From Planctomycetota bacterium (GTDB taxonomy: Bacteria; Planctomycetota; Planctomycetia; Planctomycetales; Planctomycetaceae): a DNA stretch of 64,000 nt. The notes under the pieces are model-generated. The model worked only from the letters and a program-made list of their open reading frames with translations, ran no database searches and was not told where the DNA came from. A program made the position numbers and the translations under genes. The DNA lies in assembly GCA_963582065.1 (NCBI GenBank), contig CAUZRQ010000013.1, forward strand, positions 910 to 64,909. The letters are read 5' to 3'. Shown here piece by piece: positions 1,310 through 63,622 of the stretch. Numbering within the stretch: position 1 is the first letter of the stretch; every line of letters begins with the position of its first letter.

Positions 1310-1393
1310 TTCGGCCGCGTCGGTGTCAATTGACCTCGGTGACCGCCGGTGCGAGAATCGCTCCGTGGCCACGCTTCTTCCGAGGTGAGTCTC

Positions 1394-1747: not shown

Positions 1748-1787
1748 CCGGCGGATTCAAGACGACCAGAAGACGGAATCACAGACG

Positions 1788-4798: not shown

Positions 4799-4928
4799 GC
4801 CGGCCCGGGCAACCGGCGCTTGCCAATCGATGTCGGCTGGGTGAGAATGACCGGCCTGCAAGTCGCTTTGTCAGAGGAAAAATGACCGGCCGGTCTCAGC
4901 CGGGTTTCAGTGCAAACGGAGGGTGTTG

Positions 4929-5423
4929 ATGGCTGTTTCGATGAGGACCGGACTGGGCCTGTTGATGGCTCTGTTGTTGATTGCTGCCGATTCCGGCCAA
5001 CTGGTCGCACAGGGGACGCCGGGAAGCGGCGACTCCGGTCAGCCGCCGGCCGGTGCTCAGCAGATGCCCCCCGGGGGGATGAATGCGGGGGCGGCGAACA
5101 AGGACCAGTTCGAACAGGGCGACGTACAGATTTCCGGCGGTGGTGATCCCGAAGGTGTCGGGGCCGATGCAGCGTTGTATGAGATGCTGCCCTACATCGT
5201 GCTGGTCGTCGTGGCCGTGGTTGGAATCGTCATCTACATGGTGAAGTCCTCGTCGGGTGGTGGCGATGCGGGTCCGGTTGCTTCGGCTGAACCCGCAGCG
5301 ACTGCCGAAATCGACGGCGGCGGTGACGGCGGCGGTGACGGCGGCGGTGACGGCGGCGGTGACGGCGGCGGTGACGGCGGCGGTGATGGCGGCGGTGATG
5401 GCGGAGGTGACGGCGGCGAATAG
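4929..5423 (+). CDS. Small single-pass membrane protein with C-terminal (GGGD)8 repeat tail
   Basis: GGAGG lies 7 nt upstream of ATG 4929; the track ORF starts at GTG 4923. Signal-peptide-like N-terminus, one TM helix (MLPYIVLVVVAVVGIVIYMV), then a Gly/Asp repeat encoded by a 12-bp tandem repeat. Confidence 0.6.
   Translation: MAVSMRTGLGLLMALLLIAADSGQLVAQGTPGSGDSGQPPAGAQQMPPGGMNAGAANKDQFEQGDVQISGGGDPEGVGADAALYEMLPYIVLVVVAVVGIVIYMVKSSSGGGDAGPVASAEPAATAEIDGGGDGGGDGGGDGGGDGGGDGGGDGGGDGGGDGGE
5316..5420. repeat. Tandem 12-bp repeat (ggcggcggtgac) x ~8.7, coding (GGGD)n
   Basis: Read directly from the sequence. There are five perfect units, two with gac->gat, one with ggc->gga, and a truncated last unit that runs into the stop codon. 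Confidence 0.95.
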
Positions 5424-5483
5424 CCGGTCGGAGATTCGGCCGAAGTCGGCCTGGTTTTTCGAGACGTCTACGGGAGGGCTGCG

Positions 5484-6071
5484 ATGAACGCCGCAGTGCT
5501 GGTGGCTCTCTGGATAGGCGCCACGCCCGTAGCTGCCGCTGAGGAACCGATCGCGGGCCTCGCCAAGGCCGTTTCGGTTGACGCGTCGAGATTGACCCGG
5601 GAGGGGCTCCGCGATCGATTCCTGGTGCTGATGAAGCGGACGGCGCGGAACCGCCGTCCGCTGGCCGACCCGGCCAAGGTGGTTCCGGCGCTGGTCCGGC
5701 TGGACGAGGACCTGAGAACGACCCGGAAGCTGTCGTTTGCCGAGCGTCGCCGGAAGCATTCTGCGATCAATGGCCGGCTGGGTGATATCCTGCCGAGGTT
5801 GCAGAGGCAGCGTCGCGAGTTTGCCGGGGCACGACTCGGGCGTCGGCGGCCGTCACGCGGGACGGGCTTTTCGCTGGCCGGTCCGGCCGATGAGCGTGCC
5901 GCCGGCGAGTTGATATCGTTGATCCAGGATACGATCGCACCGGACAGTTGGGACGTGCGAGGTGGCAAGGGGACGATTCGTTACTACCCCAACTTCCACG
6001 TGCTGGTGGTCCGCAACACCGCCGAGGTGCATCGCCGGATCGGCGGGACTTTGAAGCAACTGAAGAAATGA
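5484..6071 (+). CDS. Hypothetical secreted protein
   Basis: GGGAGGG lies upstream of ATG 5484. Signal peptide MNAAVLVALWIGATPVAAA. C-terminal IQDTIAPDSWDVRGGKGTIRYYPNFHVLVVRNT motif, which recurs in planctomycete secreted proteins. No assignable function. Confidence 0.55.
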   Translation: MNAAVLVALWIGATPVAAAEEPIAGLAKAVSVDASRLTREGLRDRFLVLMKRTARNRRPLADPAKVVPALVRLDEDLRTTRKLSFAERRRKHSAINGRLGDILPRLQRQRREFAGARLGRRRPSRGTGFSLAGPADERAAGELISLIQDTIAPDSWDVRGGKGTIRYYPNFHVLVVRNTAEVHRRIGGTLKQLKK

Positions 6072-6940
6072 CAACCACAGGGAGTCGAGTCGTGAAGATG
6101 TCAACGATGTGCATGTTGGGACTGGCCGTGTTGTTCTCGACCGGCCAGAGGTTGCCGGCTGCCGGGCCGGTGCGGGTGCTGTTTGTCACCCAGAGCAAGG
6201 GGTTCCCCCACGGTGCGGTCACCCGTCGTCAGAATAACCTGGCTCCGGCCGAGATCGCCATGACACAGTTGGGCCAGCAGACCAAGCTGTTCACCGTCGA
6301 CTGCACCCAGAACTGCCAGGCCGACTTCACCGCGGCGAACCTGAAGAAGTACCGGATCGTGATGTTCTACACGACCGGCGTGCTGCCGATCACCGACAAG
6401 AATCGCGACTACTTCGTCAACACGTGGCTGAAGACCAAGGGCCACGGCTACATCGGGTTCCACTCGGCGACCGACACCTACCGCACCAAGAATCCCAAGC
6501 ACCGCTGGTACCAGGAGATCGCCGGCGGGACCTTCAACGGTCACCCGTGGGGATCGGGCAACAACGTCACCATCACCGTCCACGACACCTCGCACCCGGC
6601 GATGAAGCCGTTCGGCAAGGAGTTCCAGATCAAGGACGAGATCTACCAGTACGTCAACTGGGTGCCGAAGAACGTGCGAGTGTTGATGAGCCTGAACATG
6701 GCCAAGTGCAACCCGAAGCGTCCCTACCACGTTCCGGTCGCCTGGTGCCGCTCGTGGGGTGATGGAAAGATCTACTACTCGAACCTCGGCCACAACGAGC
6801 GGACGTGGACGAACAAGGTGGTGCTGAAGTCGACCGAGAACGCGGTCCGCTGGGTGCTGAACCTCGAATCGGGCAACGCCGCACCGAATCCGGACGTGTC
6901 GAAGTCCGAGGAAGCCAAGGCCAAGGCGGCGGTCGAGTAG
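6068..6940 (+). CDS. ThuA-domain (trehalose-utilisation-like) secreted protein
   Basis: ATGA overlap with the preceding stop; alternative starts at GTG 6092 and ATG 6098. Signal peptide, then GFHSATDT...GGTFNGHPWG...IKDEIY motifs typical of the ThuA family. Confidence 0.75.
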   Translation: MTTTGSRVVKMSTMCMLGLAVLFSTGQRLPAAGPVRVLFVTQSKGFPHGAVTRRQNNLAPAEIAMTQLGQQTKLFTVDCTQNCQADFTAANLKKYRIVMFYTTGVLPITDKNRDYFVNTWLKTKGHGYIGFHSATDTYRTKNPKHRWYQEIAGGTFNGHPWGSGNNVTITVHDTSHPAMKPFGKEFQIKDEIYQYVNWVPKNVRVLMSLNMAKCNPKRPYHVPVAWCRSWGDGKIYYSNLGHNERTWTNKVVLKSTENAVRWVLNLESGNAAPNPDVSKSEEAKAKAAVE

Positions 6941-6968
6941 TTCCGGTGCGGTGATTCGCAACGGCCGC

Positions 6969-7448
6969 TCAGATCCCCAGGATCTTCAGTGCCCAGTTGC
7001 CGAACAGCGCCGCGATCAGTGTCCAGGCGAACACCGGCTTCAACCACCCGGGACCCGGTTCGGGCAGCCCCCGGGTTCTGAGATGGTGGAGCAGGTGCAG
7101 CCTGTAGGGGAACTGGATCAACAGCCCGCAGGCCAACAGCCAGCCGGTGCGGTTGAAGCGGAAGGCTCCATCGAAGTCTCGATCGGCCAACGCGATGAAA
7201 CTGCGGGTCAGCCCGCAGCCGGCGCACTCGAAGTCGAACAGCCCCCGGCTGGCGCAGGTTTCCGGCAGCGGGAAACCGGGCAGCCAGGCGAACTCGACTC
7301 TCTGGTCGGCACGGGTCCGCAGTGACAGTGCCAGCGCGACAATCACCGTGCAGGCGATCAGCACCCTCAGATGGTGCTTGCGCTGCGACGCCGCGTGATC
7401 GACCGGTTGGACCGCCGCGGCCGGGTGGGTCGTGTCGGATTCGGTCAT
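6969..7448 (-). CDS. DUF2752-family membrane protein
   Basis: CASRGLFDFECAGCGLTRS motif (CP..G..CPGCG.TR-type) plus several TM segments. Confidence 0.7.
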   Translation of the reverse strand: MTESDTTHPAAAVQPVDHAASQRKHHLRVLIACTVIVALALSLRTRADQRVEFAWLPGFPLPETCASRGLFDFECAGCGLTRSFIALADRDFDGAFRFNRTGWLLACGLLIQFPYRLHLLHHLRTRGLPEPGPGWLKPVFAWTLIAALFGNWALKILGI

Positions 7449-7475
7449 TGGCAGACCCTTCTCCGAACGGTGCCA

Positions 7476-8666
7476 TCAGTCCATCGCCAGGACCGGCACG
7501 ATCGCTTCCTGGCACGGCCCCCCGGTGACGTGGACGGTTCCGTCGCCGTCGACAAACACGTTCACCTCGCTGCGGATGCCGAACTCGGGCAGGTAGATGC
7601 CCGGTTCAATCGAGAAGCAGGTGTTTCGCATCACGCGTCGCTGTTCGTGGGTTTCCAGGTTGTCCATGTTGGCTCCGTTGCCGTGGACCTCCTGGCCGAT
7701 GCTGTGTCCGGTGCGGTGGATGAACGCTTCGCCGTAGCCCGCCTCGACGATCACGTCGCGGCAGGCCTGGTCGACTTCCCATCCCTGCAGCAGCCGGTCC
7801 TCGGCAAATGCCCCCCTCACGCACTCGATCGCCGCGTCGCGGGCTGCGGCCACCACGGCAAACACCTCGGCGTATCGCTCGGGAACCTCGGTGCCCACGT
7901 ACCCCATCCGGGTCAGGTCGCTGTAGACGCTTTGCGGCCGGTCGACCTTGCACCACTGGTCGATCAGTACGAGGTCGTCCTGCCGGATCGCGGTGTCGTC
8001 GCCGGTGCCGGTTTCGTAGTGGGGGTTCCCCGAGTGGGCGTTGCGGGCGACGATCGGGGGGTGATAGGTGGTGGCGTCGTGGGCGCGGTAATGGTCCATG
8101 ATCACCTGCTGGATGGCGGTCTCCTGGACCTGTCCGCCCCCGGAAGTCGCCTCGGCGATCGCCCGCCAGGCCACGCCGAATGCCGAGGTGGTGATCGCTT
8201 CGGCCTCGCGGTGCATTGCCGCCTGGGCCCCGTCCCACGTGGCCTCGAATTTCTGTACGAGGTCTCCCGAGGAGATGATGTTGCAGCCCGATTCGCCGAC
8301 CAGTTCGATCGTGCCCGCGTCGATTCTCGAGACGTACGGGTTGCCGGCCCGCGGGGCGTACTCGGTGGCGACCGTATCGAGTCCCTCGAGCAGCCAGGCC
8401 ATTCCGGCCTCGAATTCCTGCCAGGCCAGGTAGACCCGGGTCTCGCCGGGGATCGCATCCAGCGCGCCGGCCTCGATGCGGTGCACCAGTTTCCTGGGTG
8501 GGCCGTCGGCACGCAGGCAACAGGCCCAGCGCCGACTGCCGGCGTGTTCACCGTCGAGTCCCAGCACGCGGCGGGCCAGCACGTTGCTGTTGCGGAAGTC
8601 GTAGAGCAGCCAGCCGTCGAGTGCGAATTCGCGGAGGGCCTGCTGGATCGGTTCGGGGTCGAACAT
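7476..8666 (-). CDS. M24-family metallopeptidase (Xaa-Pro aminopeptidase-like)
   Basis: C-terminal HRTGHSIGQEVHG...FSIEPGIY...RSEV metal-ligand motifs. I place the start at the internal Met (MFDPEPIQQALREF), codon 150 of track ORF 7476..9113. The upstream 149 codons are Arg/Pro/Gly-rich and look non-coding. Confidence 0.8.
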   Translation of the reverse strand: MFDPEPIQQALREFALDGWLLYDFRNSNVLARRVLGLDGEHAGSRRWACCLRADGPPRKLVHRIEAGALDAIPGETRVYLAWQEFEAGMAWLLEGLDTVATEYAPRAGNPYVSRIDAGTIELVGESGCNIISSGDLVQKFEATWDGAQAAMHREAEAITTSAFGVAWRAIAEATSGGGQVQETAIQQVIMDHYRAHDATTYHPPIVARNAHSGNPHYETGTGDDTAIRQDDLVLIDQWCKVDRPQSVYSDLTRMGYVGTEVPERYAEVFAVVAAARDAAIECVRGAFAEDRLLQGWEVDQACRDVIVEAGYGEAFIHRTGHSIGQEVHGNGANMDNLETHEQRRVMRNTCFSIEPGIYLPEFGIRSEVNVFVDGDGTVHVTGGPCQEAIVPVLAMD

Positions 8667-23521: not shown

Positions 23522-23632
23522 CCGGTTTTCCGTTCCGTCAGGCATCGGACTTGGCGAACTCGCGTTCGCTACTCCGGCACTGCTGGCGAATGGAAACGGT
23601 GAGACTTGCAGGACTGTAGTAAAGGCGTCGTG

Positions 23633-24220
23633 ATGCGCAGGTTCTCAACTCCTCGCCCATTGGTAGCCGCCGTCGCGTGGCTGATTGGTTCGCTTCCCGC
23701 GGTGGCCGAGGCCGCCGAGGAGGGTGTGCCGTTGAGCTTCAAGACCGACTTGGCGATCTGGTCGCTGGTGGTCTTCGTGCTGTTCGTCTTCGTGTTGAAG
23801 AAGATTGCCTGGGGTCCCCTGTCCGCCGGGCTCGACGCCCGTGAGCAGCGGATCCGCGAGGACATTGCCGGTGCCGAGTCGGCTCGCGAGCGGGCCGAGG
23901 CGATGCTGGCTGATCACGAGGCGAAACTGGCGGGCGTGCAGGAGGAGGTCAAGGAGATCCTGGCCGAGGCGCGGGGAGATGCCGAGCACACCAAGAACGA
24001 GATCATGGCGGCAGCGCAAAGCGAGGCCGAGGCGACTCGAGATCGGGCGATTGGAGAAATCGAGCGGGCCCGTGACCAGGCCCTCAAGGAACTCTTCGAC
24101 CAGGTCTCGACGCAGGTCGCCGCTGCGACCGAGCACGTGCTGGGGCGATCGCTGGATGCGGCCGACCAGCAGCGGTTGATTGGCGAGGCACTGGCGGAAA
24201 TGACTTCGGAGTCGAATTGA
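23633..24220 (+). CDS. atpF: F0F1 ATP synthase subunit b
   Basis: One N-terminal TM helix followed by a long charged helix (REQRIREDIAGAESARERAEAMLADHEAKL). Start at Met 23633; the track ORF begins at 23606. Confidence 0.85.
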   Translation: MRRFSTPRPLVAAVAWLIGSLPAVAEAAEEGVPLSFKTDLAIWSLVVFVLFVFVLKKIAWGPLSAGLDAREQRIREDIAGAESARERAEAMLADHEAKLAGVQEEVKEILAEARGDAEHTKNEIMAAAQSEAEATRDRAIGEIERARDQALKELFDQVSTQVAAATEHVLGRSLDAADQQRLIGEALAEMTSESN

Positions 24221-24252
24221 GCAACCTGGAGCGAGACGAGAGGAACGGCTAG

Positions 24253-26452
<2,200 letters not shown>

Positions 26453-26523
26453 AACCAGGCAGGCCGGTTGTTCGGCCCAAGCGTCATTTTTTGTCACTGC
26501 ACCCTTGAGTTGAAACGCCGGCG

Positions 26524-27429
26524 ATGGCCAACATCCGAACGATTGTCAAACGGCTGAAGGCGGTCAGGAACGTCCGTAAGATCACGCGGACGATGGAACT
26601 GATTGCCACGGCGCGGTTCAAGAAAGCGATGGACCGTGCGACCGAGGCGGCTGCCTACACGCAGAAGATCGCCGAGATCGTCTCGGATCTGTCCGGAGCC
26701 GCCCTCTCGTTCAGTCACCCATTGCTCGAGGGTCGCGAGACGCAGCAGAAGTGTGCCGTGCTGGTTCTGACCAGCAATCGCGGCCTGTGCGGCGGCTACA
26801 ACGGGGGCGTGTTGCGGTTGGCGGTGCCACGGATGAAGGAGTTGAAGGCCGAGGGCCGAGATGTGTCGCTGGAAGTCTCGGGCAAGCGCGGGCTGGCGTT
26901 CCTGAGATTCCAGGGTGAGACGATCGCCCACGAGTACACGCATTTCGAAGACAAGCCGACCTTCGACGAGGTCGATGAGCTGGCCAGCCGGTACATCGGT
27001 GCCTACGTTGCCGGAGAACTCGATCGTCTCGACGTCGCTTACACGCGGTTCGAGTCCTCATCGCGACAGAAGGCGACAATCGAGACCCTGCTGCCAGTCG
27101 GATCTCTCGATGTCCCCGACGACGAGTCGGCCGATTCCGGTGCAGATGACCAGGCGGGTGGCGGCAGCTCGGTCGATTACGAGTTTCTCCCCTCGGCCGG
27201 CGAGATTCTCGAGCAGATCGTCCCGGCATCATTCAAGGCCCGGCTGTTCAAGGGCTTTCTTGATGCTGCCGTCAGTGAACAGATCTTCCGGATGGTGGCG
27301 ATGAAGGGGGCCACTGAGAACGCCGGAGAGATGATCGATACGCTCTCGATGAAGTACAACCGGGCCCGGCAGACACAGATCACCTCCGAACTCAGTGAGA
27401 TCATCGGCGGAGCCGCGGCTCTCGAATAG
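26524..27429 (+). CDS. atpG: F0F1 ATP synthase subunit gamma
   Basis: MANIRTIVKRLKAVRNVRKITRTMELIA N-terminus and ITSELSEIIGGAAAL C-terminus. Confidence 0.95.
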   Translation: MANIRTIVKRLKAVRNVRKITRTMELIATARFKKAMDRATEAAAYTQKIAEIVSDLSGAALSFSHPLLEGRETQQKCAVLVLTSNRGLCGGYNGGVLRLAVPRMKELKAEGRDVSLEVSGKRGLAFLRFQGETIAHEYTHFEDKPTFDEVDELASRYIGAYVAGELDRLDVAYTRFESSSRQKATIETLLPVGSLDVPDDESADSGADDQAGGGSSVDYEFLPSAGEILEQIVPASFKARLFKGFLDAAVSEQIFRMVAMKGATENAGEMIDTLSMKYNRARQTQITSELSEIIGGAAALE

Positions 27430-28950
<1,521 letters not shown>

Positions 28951-28956
28951 AGAACC

Positions 28957-29355
28957 GTGGCAGAGAGTGCATTGCAACTCGTCCTGGTGACGCCCGAAAC
29001 CACGCTGCTCGATGCGCCCGTGCGATCGTTGCAGTTTCCCGTCTTCGACGGGCAGATCGGAGTGCTGCCGGGCCGTGCCCCCGTGGTGGGTCGCCTGGGC
29101 TACGGTGTGCTGACGGTCTCGACCTCCGACGGCGACATCGTGAAGTACTTCATCGAGGGCGGATTCGTACAGGTCAAGGCGGGGACGGTGACCCTGCTGA
29201 CCGACCGGGCACAGGGCCTCGACGACATCGATCGCCAGGCTGCCGAGGACCTGCTTGCAGAAGCTTCGAAACGGGTTCCCGTCACCGACGCCGAACTGGT
29301 CGCCAAGGAGCGCGACCAGGAAAGTGCCCGGCGGATGCTGGCCGTCGGTCGTTGA
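28957..29355 (+). CDS. atpC: F0F1 ATP synthase subunit epsilon
   Basis: 132 aa. The LQLVLVTPE...GQIGVLPGRAP...GGFVQV pattern is typical of epsilon. Last gene of the operon. Confidence 0.9.
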   Translation: MAESALQLVLVTPETTLLDAPVRSLQFPVFDGQIGVLPGRAPVVGRLGYGVLTVSTSDGDIVKYFIEGGFVQVKAGTVTLLTDRAQGLDDIDRQAAEDLLAEASKRVPVTDAELVAKERDQESARRMLAVGR

Positions 29356-52593: not shown

Positions 52594-53904
52594 CTAGGCG
52601 GCCCCGTCGGGATCGGATCCTGCAGCCGCTGCCGGTCGCGGTGCAGTGACCAGCACGAAGACGATCTGCATCTGCCGGTTGGCCCGTTTCTTGACCCCCC
52701 TGGTTGCCGAACGCTTGATGTCGACCGATCTCAGGTTGACCTGCCGCATCAGCTTGGCCGGCAGATCCAATCGCACCTGGGCCGATGACAGTGCCGGGGC
52801 GGCCTGGTCGGCAGCCGCGGACTCGGCAATCCGATTCAGTTTACCGCCGTTCGCCTTCGACCTGCGACCGTCCGGGGCCGAGCGGGGCTTGCGAGATCTC
52901 TTGGAGTTGTTGCCGTAGGCGTTCAGCTGACTCAAGGCGCGATGGCCACCCGGAGCCGACTCCAACGCCGCCACCTGAAGCACGCCCGCCAACGCCATCT
53001 CGGCTCGAATCTCGAGACGCAACTGGCTCATCGCCTGGGTGACCTGTTCGGGAGAAGCCTGCACGACGACGCTGACCAGGTGGTCGTCGACTGGTTGTGA
53101 CCGGTCCCGGGAGTCCGGCCGAGTCCGGGCCCCTTCGGCCACGGCACGACTCGCAACCACCGCCGGGGCCGCATCGGCCCGGGCGATGTGGTGCTTCTGC
53201 AGGAGCAGGCGGAGCGAGTTGAGACCCTGTTCGATGTCGACGACCGTCAGTCGCACGACCACCGCCTGGTCGTCGGAGGTGTCGATCGCCGAGAGGATCT
53301 GGCCGACCTCGGCGTTGTCGAGTGATTTGTCGAAGACCAGTTTTCCTTTGCCGGCCAAGACACCACCACCGCCGGCGGCGAATTCCCCGCCGATCGGACC
53401 ACTGACACCCGCATCGGATTCCGGAGTCGAATCAGCCATCGCCGACGCCGCTGCCGGCCCGAACTCGGCGTCCCCCCCGGTCATGGCGTTCTCGGCGTTG
53501 ACCTGCAGAAGCTGGTTGTCCGGAGTGAGGTTTGAATCGCGTGGAATCACGGCGACGACGACCACCAACGCCGCCGCGACAACGGCCGCGACCAGAGGGG
53601 CACGGTAAGAACGGGCGGGTGGTCGAGGTGTGGGTCGGGAAGCGGGAAAACTCAATTGGAGGCTCCCGGGGACCGAAGCCACCGGGAAATCCGAGAGGTA
53701 GGTGGAGAGCGATCGGAGGTCGTCGAGCGACCGGCGAGACTCCTCGGAAGACCCGAGTTGAGCCTCGACCGCCTCGGTCTCCTCGGCGGTCAATTCGCCA
53801 TCGAGATATGCCGAGAGCAGTTCGTCCCGGCTGGTTTCCCGGGTGCCTTCGGAATCCTGATCAGAAGGATGATCAGGACCATGACTTGGTGGGTGTGTGT
53901 TCAT
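52594..53904 (-). CDS. Anti-sigma-factor-like single-pass membrane protein
   Basis: Start at Met 53904, codon 35 of track ORF 52594..54006. N-terminal LSAYLDGELTAEETEAVEAQL anti-sigma-type helix, one TM helix (APLVAAVVAAALVVVVAVI), and a long low-complexity periplasmic part. No zf-HC2 His/Cys residues. Confidence 0.6.
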   Translation of the reverse strand: MNTHPPSHGPDHPSDQDSEGTRETSRDELLSAYLDGELTAEETEAVEAQLGSSEESRRSLDDLRSLSTYLSDFPVASVPGSLQLSFPASRPTPRPPARSYRAPLVAAVVAAALVVVVAVIPRDSNLTPDNQLLQVNAENAMTGGDAEFGPAAASAMADSTPESDAGVSGPIGGEFAAGGGGVLAGKGKLVFDKSLDNAEVGQILSAIDTSDDQAVVVRLTVVDIEQGLNSLRLLLQKHHIARADAAPAVVASRAVAEGARTRPDSRDRSQPVDDHLVSVVVQASPEQVTQAMSQLRLEIRAEMALAGVLQVAALESAPGGHRALSQLNAYGNNSKRSRKPRSAPDGRRSKANGGKLNRIAESAAADQAAPALSSAQVRLDLPAKLMRQVNLRSVDIKRSATRGVKKRANRQMQIVFVLVTAPRPAAAAGSDPDGAA

Positions 53905-54097
53905 TGGTATCGGCCCGCGCGGAATGATCCCTGGATCTAGGACGCAACCGTTTGGGGCGGGGTTCCCTCTTTTTTCAGGAAAGTCCCATCCAGCGGTTAT
54001 CATCACGGTTAATCGTCATGGTCCTGCCGTCTTTTTTCCCGGAATCGGCGATAATTTTGATCCGGCCGGACCGACCCGGCAGACTGAAGAGCTCGCG

Positions 54098-57097
54098 ATG
54101 TCGTTGATTGCCCGTTCCCGACGCCCGGTGTTGATCGGCCTGGCCGCCGTGGTCATCGTGCTGGCCGCCTGGTGGGGAGCCAACGAAACGCCCGGTGAGA
54201 AGCTGGCACGGGCCGGGCGGTTGCTGGCGGCGAAGCGTTTCGAGGAGGCGGGCCGGTTGGCTGAGACGGTTCCGCCGTCGGCCGACGAGGCGTGGGAAGC
54301 GTGGGTGCTGGCCGGGAAGGCATTCGTACAGGTTCGCGATTACGACCGGGCGATCGAGGTGTACGGTCGAGTGCCCGATCGGGCGGGCCGGTTGGCTGTG
54401 GCGGCCCGCAGCGGGGCGGCAGCGGTGCTGTTGGATCAGCGGATGCTGCGGCAAAGCGAAGAGCAACTGCTCAGGTTGGAGGCGATCCAGCCGGATCATC
54501 CGCTGGTCGGTGAGGGGCTGGCTCACGTCTGGAACGTCTCGGCTCGACGTCACGAAGCGGTGCCGCGGATGTTGGCGGCGGCGGTGAGCGGGCGAGGGCC
54601 ACCACCGGTTGAATTGCTGGTCATGCTGGCCGACATCGAGCGTCCCTTCGGCGGGCTCGAGTACCTGGACCTGTGCCGCCGGGCCGACCCGGCCGATCCG
54701 CTGCCGATTCTCGGCCAGGCCGCTGCGGCACTTGCCGAAAACGAAACCGGGCGGGCCGAGACTCTGGTGCGGGAGGTGTTGGAGGGGGGGACGATCGATG
54801 CGGATGACGTGGCACGTGGTGTGGCCGGCCGCATTCTCGGGATGATCCTGGCCGAATCCGGCCGCGACGCCGATTTTCTGGATTGGCACGGCCGGCTGCC
54901 GGCTGAAGCCGATGCCGACCCGTTGGTCTGGTTGGCTCGGGGTCTCCATGTCCACCGTGGGGGTCGTATCGAGGAAGCCGCCCGCTGCCTGTGGGAGGCC
55001 CTGGTCCGACAGCCGAACCTGAGACAGGCCAACCACTTGCTGGGCCAGTGCCTGAAGTCGCTGGGGCGGGATGACGATGCGAAGGTCTTCCTGGAACGGG
55101 CGAAACAGCTCGAGCACCTGGTACGGATCCTCGAGCATGTCGAGGTCCGCCTGAAGGCGAGATTCACCGAACGCGACGCGGCACTGTGGAAGGACATGGT
55201 CGAACAGCTGCAGGTGTTGGGTCGCGAGTCCGAGGCGCGGCACTGGGCCCGGGTGGCGCTTGCCCGGAACCTGTCGGAAAGATGGGCGCGACGCATATTG
55301 AACCGTCCATTCGGTCGGGGACAGGTCGATCCGCTCGAGCAGACCATCACCTCGGCCCAGCCCGCCGGCCAGGTCGATCTTTCGGATCTTCCACTCCCCG
55401 ACTGGAAACAGCCTGTCGGCCGGGTGGAGGTCTCCGACGGGGCCGGATCGGGTGGGTCGGGACGGATACGTTTCGTGGACATCACGCGGGAGGCCGGGAT
55501 CGACTTCAGCTATTTTCAGAGTCCCGATACGGCCACACCGGGGGCTCGGATGTTCGAGAACACCGGTGGGGGAGTCGCGGTGCTCGATTTCGACCGCGAC
55601 GGATGGCCCGACCTCTATTTCACACAGGGCTGTCGCTGGCCCGCGGATTCGGTGCAGGCCGATCCGGACCGGACGGACGTGTTTCTCGATCGGCTGTACC
55701 GCAACAACGGTGACGGGACATTCGGTGACGTGACACGGATGGCGGGCCTGGGAGACGAACGGTTCAGCCAGGGAGTTGCCGTGGGGGACATCGACCATGA
55801 CGGATGGCCCGACCTGTACGTCGCCAACATCGGCGACAACCGGTTGTACCGCAACAACGGTGATGGAACCTTTGACGAATGGTCATTCGATCGGGACGAA
55901 CCGCCGGACCGGTGGACCACCAGTTGCGTCGTGGCTGACATCGACGGCGACGGCCACGTTGATCTCTACGACGTCAATTACCTCTCCGGTGCGGACGTCT
56001 TCACCAAGATCTGCCGGACGCAGGGCGTGCCGTTTGCCTGTCACCCCAACGAATTCGAAGGGGCGCAGGATCGGTTCTGGCGGGGGGATGGGTCGGGCGG
56101 GTTTGTCGACGCCACGTCCGCGGGTGGATTCGTCGTCGGCAATGGGAAGGGGCTGGGAATCGTTGCCGCGCGGTATCGCGGTGGGTCCAGCACCGCTTCT
56201 CGGTCCGGGCTGGGCCTGTTCATTGCCAACGACGCCGTGGCCAACTTCTTCTTCGTGGCCGGACAACGGAGTTCTCGAGACGAGGCATTGTTGCGTGGCG
56301 TGGCCTACGACCGGGACGGCCGGCCGCAGGCCTGCATGGGCGTGGCCGCCGGCGATGCTGACGGCGACGGACGGCTCGATCTGTTCATCACCAATTTCTA
56401 CGCCGAGTCGAACGTGTTGTACCGCCAGGGCGAGAGGGGTCACTTCAGTGACATCACCAGGGTTGCCGGTCTGCGGGAGCCCGGCTGGAAGATGCTCGGA
56501 TTCGGAACGCAGTTCCTCGATGCCGACCTCGACGGGCGACTCGACCTGGTTGTTGCCAACGGCCACGTCGACGACCTCTCGACGCTGGGGCAGTCGTACC
56601 GGATGCGGCCCCAGTTGATGCACAACAGGGGAGGCGGGCGGTTTGTCGAGATCGACTCGGAGTCCCTGGGCGAGTATTTCGGGAAGCGGTTGTTGGGACG
56701 CGGGCTGGCACGGGGCGACTTCGACCGTGACGGACGTCCGGACTTCGCTGTCAGTCATCTCGACGACCCCGCTGCCGTTCTGGCCAACCGCACCGAAGAG
56801 TCGGGGCACTGGCTGGCCGTTCGGCTGGTGGCCCGGGGGTCGGCCCGCGATGCGATCGGGGCCGAGGTGACCGTGCGGACCGGTTCATCGCGCCAGGTTC
56901 ACCAGTTGACCGCCGGAGACGGCTACCAGGCATCGAACCAGCGGGCACTGGTGATCGGGCTGGGGCAGGCCGCACGCGTCGACGAGTTGACCATCGCGTG
57001 GCCGTCGGGCGAGACGACCCGGATCCGGGATCTCGAGCCGGACGGCGAAGTGGTGGTCGTCGAGGGCCAGTCGGTCGCCTGGCGGTTGCCCCGATAG
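54098..57097 (+). CDS. TPR + FG-GAP/VCBS repeat + ASPIC/UnbV protein (CRTAC1 family)
   Basis: ATG at 54098 inside ORF 53897..57097. N-terminal TM helix and TPR-like helices. Repeated D.D.DG.D calcium-binding FG-GAP blades. C-terminal HWLAVRL...AIGAEVTV...GDGYQASN UnbV motif. Confidence 0.85.
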   Translation: MSLIARSRRPVLIGLAAVVIVLAAWWGANETPGEKLARAGRLLAAKRFEEAGRLAETVPPSADEAWEAWVLAGKAFVQVRDYDRAIEVYGRVPDRAGRLAVAARSGAAAVLLDQRMLRQSEEQLLRLEAIQPDHPLVGEGLAHVWNVSARRHEAVPRMLAAAVSGRGPPPVELLVMLADIERPFGGLEYLDLCRRADPADPLPILGQAAAALAENETGRAETLVREVLEGGTIDADDVARGVAGRILGMILAESGRDADFLDWHGRLPAEADADPLVWLARGLHVHRGGRIEEAARCLWEALVRQPNLRQANHLLGQCLKSLGRDDDAKVFLERAKQLEHLVRILEHVEVRLKARFTERDAALWKDMVEQLQVLGRESEARHWARVALARNLSERWARRILNRPFGRGQVDPLEQTITSAQPAGQVDLSDLPLPDWKQPVGRVEVSDGAGSGGSGRIRFVDITREAGIDFSYFQSPDTATPGARMFENTGGGVAVLDFDRDGWPDLYFTQGCRWPADSVQADPDRTDVFLDRLYRNNGDGTFGDVTRMAGLGDERFSQGVAVGDIDHDGWPDLYVANIGDNRLYRNNGDGTFDEWSFDRDEPPDRWTTSCVVADIDGDGHVDLYDVNYLSGADVFTKICRTQGVPFACHPNEFEGAQDRFWRGDGSGGFVDATSAGGFVVGNGKGLGIVAARYRGGSSTASRSGLGLFIANDAVANFFFVAGQRSSRDEALLRGVAYDRDGRPQACMGVAAGDADGDGRLDLFITNFYAESNVLYRQGERGHFSDITRVAGLREPGWKMLGFGTQFLDADLDGRLDLVVANGHVDDLSTLGQSYRMRPQLMHNRGGGRFVEIDSESLGEYFGKRLLGRGLARGDFDRDGRPDFAVSHLDDPAAVLANRTEESGHWLAVRLVARGSARDAIGAEVTVRTGSSRQVHQLTAGDGYQASNQRALVIGLGQAARVDELTIAWPSGETTRIRDLEPDGEVVVVEGQSVAWRLPR

Positions 57098-57144
57098 GAC
57101 CGGTTCGCCTTGCGGCCGGTCGGGACACCGGCGACATTGGAGTG

Positions 57145-59628
57145 ATGAGGACATTGAAGTCCATGCGGTTGGCTGTCGTTCTGCTGGTTCTCGGACCGGC
57201 GATTTCCCATGCGGAGGACGGCCGGCCGATCGACCTGTCGGGGTTGGCCCGGGTTGTCGTCCATCCGGACGTGGTGCGGATGAGCGGTCACCTGGAGCGG
57301 CAGCGGCTGGTCGTGACCGGAACGACCGCCGGTGGCAATGATGGTCCGCGGTGGGACCTCGGCCGGTTGGCGCGTTACGAGGCGGTTCCGGTGGGCGTGG
57401 TCGAGGTCACCGCCGACGGCGAGCTGATCGCTCGACGGAGTGGGACCGCGGTGGTGCGGGTGACGGTCGGCAAGGTCCACTCTGAGGTGCGGGTGACGGT
57501 TCGCGACGGCGAGACGTTCCGACCGGTCAACTTCACCAACGACATCAACCCGTTGCTGACCCGTTTGGGCTGCAACGGTGGGAGTTGCCACGGCAAGTCG
57601 AACGGGAGAGGTGGCTTTCGGTTGAGCCTGTTCGGGCATCATCCCGAGTGGGACTACGAATGGATCACCCAGGGCGGCCGGGGGCGGCGGATCTTCTCGG
57701 CGGCTCCAGGCCGGTCGCTGTTGCTGCGCAAGCCGACCATGCAGATGCCACACGGTGGCGGTCGCCGGATGTCGGTCGATTCGGATGCCTATCGCCTGAT
57801 CAGGCGATGGGTGCTGGAGGGAGCCGGACGGGGCGAGGCGGACGCCGCGAGGTTGGTGCGGATCGAAGTGTTTCCGGGCGAGGCGACGGTTCGTGCCGGA
57901 CACTCGCAACAACTGGTCGTGACAGCCGTCTACGACAACGGGGCGAGACGGGACCTGAGCCGGGTTGTCGAACTGCGGACCAACGACTCGAGCCTGATCG
58001 AGATCGACGGGACCGGGCTGGTGACAGCGGGCAAGCGGACCGGCCAGACGGCCGTGATCGCACTGCTGCAGGGGCATGTCGGCGTGTCGAGGCTGACCGT
58101 GCCGCTGGAGACTCCCAGGGCCGCCTGGCCGGAGTTTCCGATCGCCAACCTGGTCGACCGCCACGTCCAGAGGAAACTCAAGACACTCGGGGTCGCACCC
58201 TCGGCGGTGTGCAACGATTCGACGTTCCTGCGGCGTGTGACGCTGCACCTGGCCGGACGGATTCCTCGTCTCGACGACGTCGAGGCCTTCCTGGACGATG
58301 ACTCGCCCCGGAAGCGAGTGGAGCTGGTCCGTCGGTTGCTGGGCTCACCCGAGTACGCCGACACGTTCGCCCAGAAGTGGTCGGCGTTGTTGAGAAACAA
58401 GCGACGGGGCCAGAAGGACCGGATTCCGGGGACGATCAGCTTCCACCGCTGGATCCGGAACGCGATCGCTTCGGGGATGCCGTTCGACCAGTTCGTGCGT
58501 TCGATTCTGACGGCCACCGGCAACGTCAGCGTGTCACCTCCTGCGCAATGGTATGCGGAGGTCCGGTACCTGGATCGCTACGTCGACGATACCGCACAGG
58601 TCTTTCTGGGACTCCGCATCGGCTGTGCCCGGTGTCATCATCACCCCTTCGAGAACTTCACCCAGGGTGACTACTACGGCCTGGCGGCGTTCTTCACCCG
58701 GATTGGCCGTCGCGAGGGGATCGGGGTGGCCGAGCGGCGGGCCAACGAGACGGTTTTCATCAAGGCCGCCGGCAGCGTCAAGCACCCGGTCACCGGCAAG
58801 CTCGTCAAGCCGCATGGTCTGGGTGGTCCCGACCTGGACGTGCCGCCTTATGCCGATCCCAGGCACCGGCTGGTCGACTGGATGGCGACTCGCGAGAACC
58901 CGTATTTCGCTCGAGCGTTCGTCAACCGGATGTGGGCCCACTGCTTCGGACGCGGGCTGGTCGAACCGATCGACGACCTGCGAGTGACCAACCCGGCCAC
59001 CAACCCGAAGTTGCTGAAGGCCCTCGCCGACGAGTTCGTCGACAGCGGATTCAACATGCGGCGCGTGCTCGAGTTGATCACCACCAGCACGACCTACCAG
59101 CTCGACTCGTCTGCCAACGTCGACAATCTCGACGAGACCCAGGGCCACTCGCGGTTCTATCCGCAGCGGCTCTCGGCCGAGAGCCTGCTCGATTCGATCG
59201 ACCAGGTCACCGCCCGGCCCACCTCCTACGGCGGATTGCCCGTCGGAACCCGTGCCATGCAACTGCCCGATGAGAACTACTCGAACCAGTTCCTCAAGCT
59301 CTTCGGGCGACCGCCTCGCGAAAGTGCCTGCGAGTGTGAGCGGACGGCAGAACCGAGCCTGTCTCAGTCGCTGTTCACCCTCAACGACAGCTTTCTTCTC
59401 GGGAAGATCTTCGATGCCAAGAGCCGCGCCGCGAAGCTGGCCACCGCCGACGGTGACCATGCTTCCCGGGTCCGCCGGTTGTTTCTGGTCGCTTTCTCGC
59501 GACCGGCGACTTCCGTCGAAGTCGAAAAGGCGGTCAAGTACATCGGTTCGGAGTCCGATTCCAAGACTGCCTACAGCAATCTGATGTGGGCGCTGATCAA
59601 CACCAAGGAATTCCAGTACAATCACTAG
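57145..59628 (+). CDS. DUF1549/DUF1553 (PSCyt2/PSD1) domain protein with Ig-like domain
   Basis: GGAG lies upstream of ATG 57145, followed by a signal peptide. CNGGSCHG and CARCHHHPFE motifs. The CECERT motif and C-terminal NTKEFQYNH are typical of the planctomycete PSD1 family. Confidence 0.9.
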   Translation: MRTLKSMRLAVVLLVLGPAISHAEDGRPIDLSGLARVVVHPDVVRMSGHLERQRLVVTGTTAGGNDGPRWDLGRLARYEAVPVGVVEVTADGELIARRSGTAVVRVTVGKVHSEVRVTVRDGETFRPVNFTNDINPLLTRLGCNGGSCHGKSNGRGGFRLSLFGHHPEWDYEWITQGGRGRRIFSAAPGRSLLLRKPTMQMPHGGGRRMSVDSDAYRLIRRWVLEGAGRGEADAARLVRIEVFPGEATVRAGHSQQLVVTAVYDNGARRDLSRVVELRTNDSSLIEIDGTGLVTAGKRTGQTAVIALLQGHVGVSRLTVPLETPRAAWPEFPIANLVDRHVQRKLKTLGVAPSAVCNDSTFLRRVTLHLAGRIPRLDDVEAFLDDDSPRKRVELVRRLLGSPEYADTFAQKWSALLRNKRRGQKDRIPGTISFHRWIRNAIASGMPFDQFVRSILTATGNVSVSPPAQWYAEVRYLDRYVDDTAQVFLGLRIGCARCHHHPFENFTQGDYYGLAAFFTRIGRREGIGVAERRANETVFIKAAGSVKHPVTGKLVKPHGLGGPDLDVPPYADPRHRLVDWMATRENPYFARAFVNRMWAHCFGRGLVEPIDDLRVTNPATNPKLLKALADEFVDSGFNMRRVLELITTSTTYQLDSSANVDNLDETQGHSRFYPQRLSAESLLDSIDQVTARPTSYGGLPVGTRAMQLPDENYSNQFLKLFGRPPRESACECERTAEPSLSQSLFTLNDSFLLGKIFDAKSRAAKLATADGDHASRVRRLFLVAFSRPATSVEVEKAVKYIGSESDSKTAYSNLMWALINTKEFQYNH

Positions 59629-59652
59629 CCGCAGTCGGTCAGGAATCCTCGC

Positions 59653-61068
59653 ATGACTCATTCCGCCACCCGTTGTCGTGGCCCGATCGACCGCCGCAGT
59701 TTCCTGAAGATCGGTGGCCTGTCGCTGGGAGCACTCTCCAGCGGACTCTCGCCCGATTTGGCCGGCCTGCTGGCGGCCGAGGCGGCCGGCGAAGCTCTCG
59801 ACAAGGACTTCTCGGTCATCCTCTTCTGGGCCAATGGCGGTCCGAGCCATCTCGAGACCTTCGACATGAAGCCCGAGGCTCCGGCCGAGTACCGGGGTGA
59901 GTTCCGGCCGATTTCGACCAATGTTCCGGGGATGGACATCTGCGAATTGCTGCCGAACCTGGCGAGGATGGGCGAAAAATATTCGATCGTCCGTAGCCTG
60001 TTTCACAACCGCAACGAGCACTCCGGCGGCACCTGCCGGTTCCTCAGCGGCTACACGCCCAAGGCGGCCAACCCGGCCGACGCCGAGTACCCCGAGTTGG
60101 GCTCGGTGGTGGCCAAGCGGTTGGAGGACCAGGTCGAGGATATTCCGCTGTTCGTGGCCAACACGAAGTTCTACGGCGGTGGCCCGGCCTACCTCGGGGC
60201 GGCCTACTCGGCCTTCATGCCCAACAGCAACTCGATCACTTCCAGTGGAGCCAACCGTTACGATCCGGTTCCGCTGTTCGGTGCCAAGGACGGCCAGTTG
60301 TCGGCTCGCGAAACCGCCCTGGCGTCGCTCCGCAAGCGCAACTCTCTGCTGTCGGAATTTGACGTGTTCCGTCGCGAACTGGACCGGTCGGGGTCGATGG
60401 ACGCGCTCGACAAGTTCCGTCGGCGGGCGGTGGCGATGCTGACCAGTCCGCGGACTGCCCGGGCATTCGACCTGACGAAGGAACCCGAAAGCGTCCATCA
60501 GCGGTACGGCAAGACACACTGGGGCCGCAGCCTGCTGTTGTCGCGTCGCCTGGTCGAGCACGGGGCACGATTCGTCCAGATGCAGGCGACCTTCCGGTTG
60601 AAGAAGGAGAATGGCCGGACCAGCAACTGGGACGACCACAGCGTCAATGCCGACATCTTCAAGGCCTACCGCGAGCGGATGCCGGTCTTCGACCAGGCGG
60701 TTCCTGCGCTGATCAACGATCTCTACGACCGGGGCCTGAACGAGAAAGTCCTGTTCATCTTCTGCGGCGAGTTCGGTCGCACGCCGAAGATCCGGCACCA
60801 GGACAAGGCGACCAAGAGGCCGGGTCGTGACCACTGGGCCCGCTCGATGAGCATTTTCCTGTCCGGTGGCGGCCTGAAGATGGGCCAGGTGATCGGAGCG
60901 ACCAACTCGCGGGGCGAGGACCCGGTGCGAAGGGTGATGAACAGCAACTGCCTGCTGTCGACGGTTTACCGGCGGTTCGGCGTGAACACCGAACACCACT
61001 TCTTCGACAACACCGGTCGCCCGGTTCCGATCCTGACCGACGGCGAGCCGATCAGCGAGTTGTTGTAG
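59653..61068 (+). CDS. DUF1501-domain (sulfatase-fold) protein, Tat-signal-like
   Basis: RRSFLKIGGLSLGA twin-arginine-like leader, FWANGGPSHLETFDMKP and GRDHW motifs. The usual partner of DUF1549/DUF1553 genes. Confidence 0.9.
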   Translation: MTHSATRCRGPIDRRSFLKIGGLSLGALSSGLSPDLAGLLAAEAAGEALDKDFSVILFWANGGPSHLETFDMKPEAPAEYRGEFRPISTNVPGMDICELLPNLARMGEKYSIVRSLFHNRNEHSGGTCRFLSGYTPKAANPADAEYPELGSVVAKRLEDQVEDIPLFVANTKFYGGGPAYLGAAYSAFMPNSNSITSSGANRYDPVPLFGAKDGQLSARETALASLRKRNSLLSEFDVFRRELDRSGSMDALDKFRRRAVAMLTSPRTARAFDLTKEPESVHQRYGKTHWGRSLLLSRRLVEHGARFVQMQATFRLKKENGRTSNWDDHSVNADIFKAYRERMPVFDQAVPALINDLYDRGLNEKVLFIFCGEFGRTPKIRHQDKATKRPGRDHWARSMSIFLSGGGLKMGQVIGATNSRGEDPVRRVMNSNCLLSTVYRRFGVNTEHHFFDNTGRPVPILTDGEPISELL

Positions 61069-61083: not shown

Positions 61084-61674
61084 TCACTCGAACTGTGCCG
61101 GTGGAGTCTCGAGGTCGCGGTAACCGGATTTGGCCAGTCCGAAGGCGTCGGCGACGCGGTTGAAGAACGCGAACATCGCCGTGACGTAGACCGCCTCGGC
61201 GATCTGTTGATCGGTCCAGCCCGCCTCGCGGAGAGCGGCCACCTCCTCGTCGGTTGTCTCGGCCGGTTCCAGTGTCAGTCGCTTGACGAATTCCAGCAAT
61301 CGGCGATGCGGCTCGTCGACGTCCGCGTCGTCGAGGTTGGCTTGTTCGAGCGAGGCGACGACGGAGTTGTCTTCATCCTGCAACTGCAGGAAATGGGCGT
61401 GGGCGTCGGTTCAGTATTCACACCGATTCAGGGCCGAGACGTATGTCGCAATCGCCTCCTTCTGTCGCCTGTCGAGGTGTCCGTCGGTGAAGTGCAGTCC
61501 GTAGGAGGCCTGCATGACCTGGGCCAGGAAGTCGGGGCGGGCCGAGAAGCACTTGAGGATCTCGGGCATTCCGCCGCGTTCGGGGTTCTGGGCCCGCCAC
61601 GCCCCGTAGATCTCGGCCAACTCGCCGGTGGCCTGGTCATCTTCGACCCACGCTATCCTGGGCGATTCGCTCAT
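61084..61674 (-). CDS. AhpD/carboxymuconolactone-decarboxylase-family peroxidase-related protein with one in-frame TGA at 61411-61413 (candidate Sec codon, otherwise pseudogene)
   Basis: Track ORFs 61411..61887 and 61084..61383 share a frame and are separated by only one TGA. The joined product reads ...ATYVSALNRCEY[TGA]TDAHAHFLQLQDEDN..., so the stop falls at the second Cys of the family's CxxC-x3-H motif. Start at Met 61674 (MSESPRIAWVEDD), 4 nt after the upstream gene's stop. Confidence 0.7.
61376..61391 (-). promoter_or_regulatory. SECIS-like stem-loop downstream of the in-frame TGA
   Basis: The mRNA reads UGA-N19-UCCUGC-AGUU-GCAGGA: a 6-bp stem with a 4-nt loop that has G at loop position 2. 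The loop begins 25 nt after the UGA. Drawn by eye and not energy-evaluated. Confidence 0.35.
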
Positions 61675-61678
61675 CGTG

Positions 61679-63622
61679 TCATTTCCTCTTCGAATCGGTT
61701 GTCGTGTCGACGTGAGTGATCTCGTGCAGGGCGTCGATCTTCGGGCCGGCCATCTCCTGGGTGGTTCCATCCGGCCAGCGAACGACCAGTTTCTCGATCC
61801 GGTCGATCCGGCCCAGTCCGAAGGTGACCGGGAGTTCGGACTGCGAGAGATAGCTGCGGGTGGGCATGACCTGCTGGCTACGAACACCTTCGCTGGTGTG
61901 GATGTCGACCCAGGTGCCGATCGCCGTGCTGTTGACCCGGTTGGTACCGGTCAGCCGGACTCTCAGCCAGTGGTGTCCCAGTTGCTGGTCGTTGCGGAGC
62001 AGCCGGGGACGTCCGCCGACGGAGGTGATCAGCAGGTCGAGGTCTCCGTCTCCATCGATGTCGGCAAAGCTGGCTCCTCGGCCGACCATCCGCTCGACGA
62101 AGTCCTTGCCGCACTGGGACGGTTCGAGTGCCACGAACTCGTTCTCGAATTCCGGGCCGCAGTTCCACAGCAATTGAGGAGGTTGCTCGTAGTGCTGGCT
62201 GGGCTGCACCAGGTTGATGTCCGCTTCGAGGTGCCCGTTGGCGGCGAAGATGTCGAGACGGCCGTCGAGGTCACTGTCGAAGAAGAAGACTCCGAAGGTC
62301 AGCTCGGGCCGGGTCAGCGGCGCGATGCCGTTGGAGATCGCTTCGTCCTGGAACACGGGAAGTTGTTCGGCGAGCGTGCGGCGGACGTACAGCGCGGTCG
62401 TTTCGTTGGCGAAGTTGCCGATCGCGATCCCCAGTTCATCGGAGTTGCGGAAGCGGCCGATATCGATGCCCATCGCTCCGCGGGCGTTGCCGTTGGTGTC
62501 GAAGGCGACTCCCGCACTGCGACCTTCCTCCCTGAACGTCCCGTCACCGTTGCCCAGGAACAGGAAGTTGCGGACCGTGTCGTTGGCGACGACCAGGTCA
62601 ACGTGTCCGTCGCTGTTGAGGTCGGCGAAGGCCACGCCCAGCGACTTGGCCAGCGGGATGTTGGTGCTTGCGTTTCGGACCTCGATCCCCGACCTGGTGG
62701 TGGCGTCCTCGAACGTCCCGTCACCGTTGTTGAGGTAGAGATAGGAGGCGCTGCCGGGGAACTTCTGTGGTTGGCCGTAGGCACGGAGCTTGCCGTCGAG
62801 CGTGAAGTTCTGGGCGAGGTCGAAGTCCTTGCTCCAGCCGACGTAGTTGCAGACGAACAGGTCGAGATCTCCGTCGGCATCGGCGTCGAAGAACCCGCAA
62901 CTGGAACTCCACGCGGTTGCCTTGCCGGCCACCCCGGCCGTTTCGGTGACGTCCTCGAACCGGTCACCGGTGTTGCGGAACAGCCGGTTGTGGCCGACGG
63001 CCGAGATGAACAGGTCGGTTCGTCCGTCGTTGTCGAAATCGCCGACGGCGACTCCCATGCCGTAAAGCGACACGTCCAGGCCGCGCTGTTTCGTGACATC
63101 GGCGAACCGGCCCTTTCCGTCGTTGGCGTAGAGGGCCGGGCGAGCCGGTTGTGCGGGCTTGGGACGGGTGTCCCAGTCCCAGCGGCGTGAGTTGACCAGC
63201 AGCAGGTCCTGGTCACCGTCACCGTCGAAATCGAAAAACGCACAGCCGCCACCCATTGTCTCGGGCAGCAGCTTGTCGCCGTAGGCTCCGTTTTCGTGGA
63301 CGAAATCGATGCCGGCTTCGTCGGTGATGTCGGTGAACGTCACCGTCGGGATCTCGGCCTGCGGACGCTCGGGCACCTGCGGCACTTCCAGCGGCGCCCG
63401 CGGGGTGACCGTTTCGGTCTCCTGTTCGAAATACCCTGCTCCAACCAGGACGCCCCCGATCACGACGGCGGCCAGTGCGAAGACGGCCAGTGATCTCCAG
63501 AGCGCCGTCGTGATGACCGTATCGTCCTGCTCCACCGTATCGGGATCGTAGTCCGGTGACTCGTCGACCGACGACTCGGGCACCTGTGGCGTGATGTTCG
63601 GCTCGGGAGGCTGATCGCTCAT
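61679..63622 (-). CDS. FG-GAP/VCBS repeat + ASPIC/UnbV protein (CRTAC1 family), second copy
   Basis: N-terminal TM helix (SLAVFALAAVVIGGVLVGAG), repeated FG-GAP blades (DFDGDGDQDLL, DFDNDGRTDLF...), and C-terminal HWLRVRL...AIGTWVDI UnbV motif. Confidence 0.9.
   Translation of the reverse strand: MSDQPPEPNITPQVPESSVDESPDYDPDTVEQDDTVITTALWRSLAVFALAAVVIGGVLVGAGYFEQETETVTPRAPLEVPQVPERPQAEIPTVTFTDITDEAGIDFVHENGAYGDKLLPETMGGGCAFFDFDGDGDQDLLLVNSRRWDWDTRPKPAQPARPALYANDGKGRFADVTKQRGLDVSLYGMGVAVGDFDNDGRTDLFISAVGHNRLFRNTGDRFEDVTETAGVAGKATAWSSSCGFFDADADGDLDLFVCNYVGWSKDFDLAQNFTLDGKLRAYGQPQKFPGSASYLYLNNGDGTFEDATTRSGIEVRNASTNIPLAKSLGVAFADLNSDGHVDLVVANDTVRNFLFLGNGDGTFREEGRSAGVAFDTNGNARGAMGIDIGRFRNSDELGIAIGNFANETTALYVRRTLAEQLPVFQDEAISNGIAPLTRPELTFGVFFFDSDLDGRLDIFAANGHLEADINLVQPSQHYEQPPQLLWNCGPEFENEFVALEPSQCGKDFVERMVGRGASFADIDGDGDLDLLITSVGGRPRLLRNDQQLGHHWLRVRLTGTNRVNSTAIGTWVDIHTSEGVRSQQVMPTRSYLSQSELPVTFGLGRIDRIEKLVVRWPDGTTQEMAGPKIDALHEITHVDTTTDSKRK

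Follow-up and report, generated by a model that had tools for sequence, protein, structure and literature searches.

A 64-kb stretch of Planctomycetota DNA (contig CAUZRQ010000013.1, positions 910 to 64,909; 64,000 nucleotides, called the window below) carries on its minus strand two open reading frames (ORFs), 61411..61887 and 61084..61383, that share one frame and are parted solely by a TGA at 61413-61411. The initial annotation had joined these ORFs into one gene of the AhpD/CMD family with a selenocysteine (Sec) codon at the TGA, and both the coordinates and the translation agree with that description. Read through from the ATG at 61674, the gene is complete (61084..61674, minus strand), as judged from its sequence, its translation and its matches to Pfam CMD and TIGR01926. 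It gives the predicted product of 196 amino acids, in which the TGA is codon 88 and is followed by 108 open, family-like codons. The terminator is the gene's own TGA at 61086-61084. The sequence around the internal TGA reads YVSALNRCEY, then the TGA, then TDAHAHFLQLQDEDN. The candidate selenocysteine, U88 (61411..61413), stands in place of the second Cys in a CxxC redox motif, C85-E-Y-U88-T-D-A-H92 (CxxU...H; 61399..61422, minus strand).

Standard gene callers were expected to split such a gene, and public calls on four independent metagenome contigs with the same locus list two ORFs of 87 and 99 amino acids. The locus was taken to be the same when the neighbouring DUF1501 protein was matched exactly and the gene order agreed. 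In the second of these ORFs, a TTG at 61383 could serve as the start. Identical copies of window proteins recur in marine metagenome assemblies, for example L085 (ENA ERZ27247690 k141_908292) and L086 (JGI 3300031804 Ga0310124).

For searches with family models, a Cys was placed at the TGA position of the protein. Pfam CMD (PF02627) was matched at 5.8e-16. The NCBIfam model TIGR01926, "peroxidase-related enzyme", scored 106.8 bits (cut-off 81.8) and was matched nearly end to end, residues 6-180 falling on profile positions 2-173 of 178. The AhpD core-domain model TIGR00778 (ahpD_dom) scored 41.8 bits (cut-off 27.8). A profile of homologues aligned over about 160 residues with the solved AhpD-like structures 6K40, 2OYO, 2PRR, 3C1L and 2PFX, with E-values of 1e-26 to 1e-28, the first three at 1e-28, and the alignment takes in the active-site block NRC-x-Y-C-x-x-SH (NRCvYCavSH). 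The profile match to solved structures settles the predicted fold as AhpD-like (CMD/AhpD). The proposal that the TGA lies on the second Cys of C-x-x-C, followed by the conserved His, is borne out by these structures and by Cys-containing homologues. Alignment A1 sets the protein beside 22 full-length homologues: C85, Y87 and H92 do not vary in it, and the homologues have Cys at the TGA column, apart from rows of JGI origin that show a Trp.

These Trp residues are an artefact of the database, through which Sec forms among the homologues go unnoticed. Three JGI homologues (P0002, P0003 and P0016) have 'W' at the Sec column. For P0003 and P0016 the codon in the DNA is TGA, which the caller rendered as W under genetic code 4; P0002 is known from its protein only. 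The code-4 calls lie at 823-1470 in locus L001 and at 1005-1622 in locus L002.

Relatives were collected by one scan of species-representative genomes, from which the best 80 loci were returned. The TGA was found at exactly the same column in 78 of these 80 loci and TGC in the remaining two, and the frame stays open after the TGA. Extra stops and frameshifts, named beforehand as signs of decay, were absent from the orthologues. The carriers of the TGA include Planctomycetota, Acidobacteriota (Terriglobia) and single metagenome-assembled genomes (MAGs) labelled Armatimonadota, Actinomycetota, Deltaproteobacteria and Acetobacteraceae. Two of the carriers, Tautonia sociabilis GM2012 (L036, NZ_RYZH01000034.1) and Acidobacteriaceae bacterium KBS 83, are cultured strains. 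The nearest relatives are the marine Planctomycete MAGs L005, L006 and L007, with 91%, 80% and 78% identity, and no species-representative genome exceeds 91% identity for this protein. All three keep the TGA and have a gene order identical to that of the window. MAGs counted among the closest are PBOJ01 (Planctomycetaceae RS395), CAWVUS01 and CAUZJR01. Together, the family-like frame of 108 codons past the TGA and the recurrence of the TGA among relatives amount to more than chance.

Selection on codons 89-196 was assessed by Nei-Gojobori estimates of the ratio of nonsynonymous to synonymous divergence (dN/dS) between the window and the three nearest relatives. The values were 0.084, 0.168 and 0.311 for L005, L006 and L007, respectively, at a synonymous divergence (dS) of 0.37-0.91. 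The N-terminal part gave similar values (0.10-0.21). The only indel among the three nearest relatives is an in-frame deletion of three codons in L007. The region past the TGA is under purifying selection. Without decoding of the UGA, such selection in four related marine Planctomycete genomes would be difficult to account for.

A candidate bacterial Sec insertion sequence (bSECIS) was located directly downstream of the UGA. The hairpin UCCUGC-AGUU-GCAGGA (61376..61391, minus strand; loop 61385-61382) overlaps the codons for F95-L-Q-L-Q-D100 and folds at -9.5 kcal/mol. The published bSECIS model requires an apical loop of 3-9 nt, an upper stem of 4-16 bp, a G in the first two loop positions, a distance of 16-37 nt from the UGA to the apical loop and a minimum free energy of -7.5 kcal/mol or lower (PMC13188914). 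Compared with this model, the hairpin agrees on every point: the loop has 4 nt (AGUU), of which the second is G and the third U, the stem has 6 bp, the distance is 25 nt and the energy lies below the limit.

The hairpin was compared among 81 distinct sequences with the TGA, which align without gaps. Its five core stem pairs form in all 81. Changes in the stem comprise one compensatory replacement of C-G by U-A (L041) and four wobble changes within C-G pairs. A subgroup of five sequences (L008, L016, L050, L054 and one more) has the loop GGUC. All TGA forms encode FLQ[LV]Q(G/D/E) or FLR(V/S/G)QG at this site. In the FLQLQ type (n = 37), the codons of L96, Q97, L98 and Q99 have entropies of only 0.30, 0, 0 and 0.18 bits, compared with 1.5-2.2 bits for other conserved Leu codons and 0.9 bits for the other conserved Gln codon. 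The Cys forms, by comparison, vary at the hairpin site (FLEFKD, FLHRQG, FLECQT and others), and the hairpin cannot form in the DNA of either of the two Cys-form loci. The expectation of a SECIS element past the TGA was thus upheld as far as the bSECIS consensus and conservation at the nucleotide level are concerned, but not by a match to an Rfam covariance model.

A longer alternative hairpin is possible in the FLR(V/S/G)QG group, which comprises 45 sequences, mostly from Acidobacteriota (for example L001 1084-1143). It would begin directly after the UGA, as CUGGAC-U-CGCA...UGCG-U-GUUCAG. Both it and the short core hairpin draw on the CAG triplet, so that the two compete. The codons of L89 (CTG), Y87 (TAT) and Y94 (TAC) are also nearly frozen in this group. 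The third position of S91 varies, which breaks one inner pair of the alternative hairpin.

Genes for Sec insertion were found next to many of the orthologues. In 22 loci the orthologue is preceded, at a distance of 1.5-5 kb, by a tRNA-Sec gene, the only other tRNA nearby being one tRNA-Arg (L072), and in 26 loci sel genes stand directly before it; nearly all loci in both sets are from Acidobacteriota. The order in KBS 83 (L044, KB906735.1) is selC, selD, selA, selB and the AhpD-like TGA gene: tRNA-Sec at 1264-1358 on the minus strand, selD at 1431-2489, selA at 2507-3985, selB at 3985-5904 and the AhpD-like UGA gene at 6001-6564. SelD, SelA and SelB of L044 each score above the NCBIfam cut-off. 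Full sets of Sec-insertion genes have been reported in several Planctomycetes (PMC4807772).

The selenium island of L044 is compact (1264-8000), and similar islands were seen in L020, L045, L048, L053, L056, L061, L063, L064 and others. In Acidobacteriaceae a second gene with an in-frame TGA follows right after the AhpD-like gene (L044 at about 6560-7400, in frame 3 counted from 6561; L002 1782-2444; L003 1087-1782). It has a deiodinase-type motif, FGSYT-U-PPFRRE, and matches Pfam T4_deiodinase, AhpC-TSA and Redoxin. The second gene probably encodes a deiodinase-like or peroxiredoxin-like (Prx-like) selenoprotein, so that the two would form a tandem selenoprotein pair.

On these grounds the gene at 61674..61084 is read as a genuine selenoprotein gene with Sec at UGA codon 88, with a probability of about 0.93. 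The product is, with the same high confidence, predicted to be a cytoplasmic AhpD-like thiol/selenol oxidoreductase of the TIGR01926/COG2128 subfamily with the motif C85-x-x-U88-x-x-x-H92. The Sec recoding put forward in the initial annotation is hence supported by the conserved TGA, by purifying selection, by the conserved hairpin and by linkage to sel genes in Acidobacteriota.

Several observations weigh against this reading. ARAGORN found no tRNA gene in the window, and no selA, selB or selD was found by Pfam among its 40 likely genes. Nor was Sec machinery seen in the approximately 7 kb beyond the window that are available in L085. tblastn searches with SelD, SelA and SelB of L044 had no match in the window and none in the loci from Planctomycetes. 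A scan for in-frame TGA codons gave no second selenoprotein candidate in the window, where the other junctions between same-frame ORFs are ordinary TAG, TAA or TGA gene ends. With regard to the hairpin, about 16% of the TGA triplets in the window, which has 65% G+C, are followed by a comparable structure, and the fold of the 81 nt after the UGA has a z-score of only -0.55 in the single sequence. Covariation is thin, with one compensatory pair, as the stem is almost invariant. Since comparable hairpins are common in such G+C-rich DNA, the hairpin is weak evidence alone, and it is the comparative data that carry weight. Rfam searches of the whole window at gathering thresholds and of 61250-61500 at permissive E-values returned no SECIS family, only chance matches. 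Bacterial SECIS elements are poorly covered in Rfam, and this result was therefore taken as uninformative.

The initial annotation had itself pointed out that a very recent mutation of TGC or TGT to TGA would look the same as Sec recoding. The gene would then be a pseudogene of a Cys-type AhpD-like gene whose frame has not yet decayed. One sequence cannot tell decay from recoding, gene callers do return two fragments and the window holds no Sec machinery. Nevertheless, the recurrence of the TGA at the same column in several phyla, together with an intact and selected frame in relatives at considerable dS (dN/dS 0.08-0.31), excludes a recent mutation, and conservation of a hairpin at the nucleotide level is unexpected in a decaying gene. 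A pseudogene is accordingly regarded as very improbable. Division of the region into two separate small genes of 87 and 99 amino acids, or an error of assembly or sequencing that created the stop, would agree with the two ORFs in public calls and with the possible TTG start of the second. Either is extremely improbable: the alignments with CMD/TIGR01926 and with solved structures run unbroken across the TGA over residues 6-180, and two genes would halve the CxxC...H motif, while the same split in four independent assemblies and a TGA in 78 other genomes speak against an error.

That the UGA is read without selenium, by near-cognate suppression with Trp or Cys or by leakiness, with the hairpin as a generic stimulator of read-through, is very improbable. 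This explanation draws on the short hairpin, which matches no Rfam SECIS model, and on Sec machinery that is only presumed for the source organism. Against it, the column is that of the catalytic Cys and a known site of Sec/Cys exchange (PMC1088965), where Trp in place of the CxxC nucleophile would inactivate the site. The hairpin fits the bSECIS consensus including the G-U of the loop, and the orthologue in Acidobacteriota stands behind selC, selD, selA and selB and is followed by a UGA gene with T-U-P-P-F. A genetic code with TGA as a sense codon (code 4 or 25), to which the W in three metagenome homologues from JGI might point, has a next to negligible probability. TGA ends 23 of the 40 likely genes of the window, among them the AhpD-like gene and its upstream neighbour, and in 64 kb there is just one in-frame TGA within a gene with coding signal on both sides. 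Moreover, the code-4 call in L001 overruns the true TGA stop into non-homologous sequence.

If the selenoprotein reading is correct, the UGA at 61413-61411 would be read as selenocysteine during translation. The mRNA hairpin 61391..61376, with its GU-containing loop of 4 nt, is predicted to recruit SelB with Sec-tRNA(Sec), after which the ribosome would proceed for 108 codons to the true TGA stop. From what is known of the family, U88 may stand in for the second Cys of the CxxC motif of AhpD, with the conserved His four residues further on, and would alternate between a selenolate and a selenenylsulfide with C85. Candidate substrates for reduction are peroxides and disulfides, the latter perhaps in a partner peroxiredoxin. 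Given the selenoprotein gene, we infer that the source organism, and with it an uncultured marine Planctomycetaceae lineage, is capable of decoding Sec.

The gene directly upstream (61679..63622, minus strand) encodes an ASPIC/UnbV FG-GAP protein, CRTAC1-like, with Pfam matches to FG-GAP_3 and UnbV_ASPIC and an N-terminal membrane anchor. Its stop TGA (61681-61679) is separated by 4 nt from the ATG of the selenoprotein gene (61674), exactly the spacing from which co-transcription had been suggested earlier. An ASPIC/UnbV gene directly precedes the AhpD-like gene in at least nine Planctomycete loci (L005, L006, L007, L009, L012, L021, L026, L033 and L080), and the pair is kept down to about 55% protein identity. 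Both the close spacing and the recurrence of the pair make co-transcription likely, and the recurrence may perhaps reflect a functional link. The canonical association with ahpC was not seen here, as no AhpC-TSA or Redoxin match was found among the 40 window proteins.

The plus strand encodes another ASPIC/UnbV paralogue, which has TPR repeats (53885-57097), followed by a PSCyt2/PSD1 protein (DUF1549/DUF1553; 56998-59628) and then by one with DUF1501 (59653-61068). PSCyt2/PSD1 and DUF1501 genes form a typical Planctomycete pair, which is convergent with the selenoprotein gene here. The order of the genes in 53885-61068 is the same in L005, L006 and L007. Elsewhere in the window, genes for the F-type ATP synthase subunits b, delta, alpha, gamma, beta and epsilon stand in a row (23603-29355, plus strand). 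Three of them share a frame with TAG stops between, and these are ordinary gene ends rather than sites of read-through.

AhpD-like selenoproteins were first reported from the Sargasso Sea, as 27 sequences of COG2128 with CxxU (Zhang, Fomenko & Gladyshev 2005; PMC1088965). In the Global Ocean Sampling (GOS) survey, 'AhpD-like 1', with 299 sequences, ranked fourth in abundance among prokaryotic selenoprotein families (PMC2398784). A 2026 review has the entry 'AhpD-like protein, TIGR01926, CxxU' (PMC13188914), and the family has its own BSepDB page (PMC13326102). The earlier remark that AhpD-like proteins occur as Sec/Cys pairs in bacteria therefore refers to a catalogued family (PMC1088965, PMC2398784, PMC13188914). 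The window gene is an unannotated new member of this family, and knowledge of selenoproteins and of AhpD chemistry is unchanged by the finding.

Its value lies rather in annotation and in distribution. This locus and many of its relatives are routinely miscalled, either split into 87 and 99 amino acids or given a 'W' under code 4. Sec forms of TIGR01926 proteins can be recognized in a simple way, by the frozen hairpin and by FLQLQ or FLRVQG as a footprint. An uncultured marine Planctomycetaceae lineage would also join the users of a common marine selenoprotein. Two features of the context appear to be undescribed as far as the literature was searched: first, the tight coupling of a Sec-type AhpD-like gene to ASPIC/UnbV in marine Planctomycetes; second, the near sequence-invariant mini-SECIS (UUCCUGCAGUUGCAGG) across several phyla, together with the Acidobacteriaceae island of selC, selD, selA, selB, AhpD-like(U) and deiodinase-like(U). 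The invariance of the mini-SECIS across phyla and the compactness of the island suggest that the Sec form might travel as a cassette. A joint reading, in which ASPIC/UnbV is a redox partner and the Sec form spreads as a cassette, with its protein perhaps keeping the Sec trait alive in the Acidobacteriaceae genomes, is speculative and rather unlikely to hold as a whole.

The AhpD domain of this protein can be compared with that of other systems. Mycobacterium tuberculosis AhpD has a CxxC...H motif and reduces AhpC; the second Cys of the motif, next to the conserved His, is the nucleophile. It shares with the present protein the CMD/AhpD core domain and the C-x-x-C-x-x-x-H geometry, but it belongs to a distant subfamily and has Cys in place of Sec. 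The solved proteins 6K40 (alkyl hydroperoxide reductase AhpD), 2OYO, 2PRR, 3C1L and 2PFX have the same active-site block, also with Cys rather than Sec at the second position. For most of these 'peroxidase-related' AhpD-like proteins the biochemical assignment stops at structural genomics. NF041238 (AhpD_rel_CFYUT '(seleno)protein', the 'hypothetical protein 1' of the Sargasso Sea) likewise has an AhpD-related C-terminal domain, with the motif C-F-Y-U-T where C-E-Y-U-T is found here. Membership in NF041238 was considered and rejected: the score was 70.8 bits against a cut-off of 175, and only profile positions 175-334 of 357 were covered, the N-terminal half being absent.

In E. coli fdhF, the SECIS is a stem-loop in the coding region just past the UGA, and its small apical loop contains G-U. 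The candidate element resembles it in its place within the coding region after the UGA and in the G-U of the loop, a likeness that the five-sequence subgroup with GGUC carries further. It is shorter, however, with a stem of 6 bp and no evident bulged U, and its loop lies about 6 nt farther from the UGA. The closest likeness is to the known AhpD-like selenoprotein family (COG2128/TIGR01926) itself. The proteins belong to the same hidden Markov model (HMM) family and have CxxU with Sec on the second Cys; in both cases Cys homologues are widespread, a bSECIS follows directly downstream and the genes occur in marine metagenomes. Nothing essential differs. Specific to the present case are the host, an uncultured marine Planctomycetaceae bacterium, the ASPIC/UnbV neighbour, and a near-invariant hairpin that is documented here across phyla.

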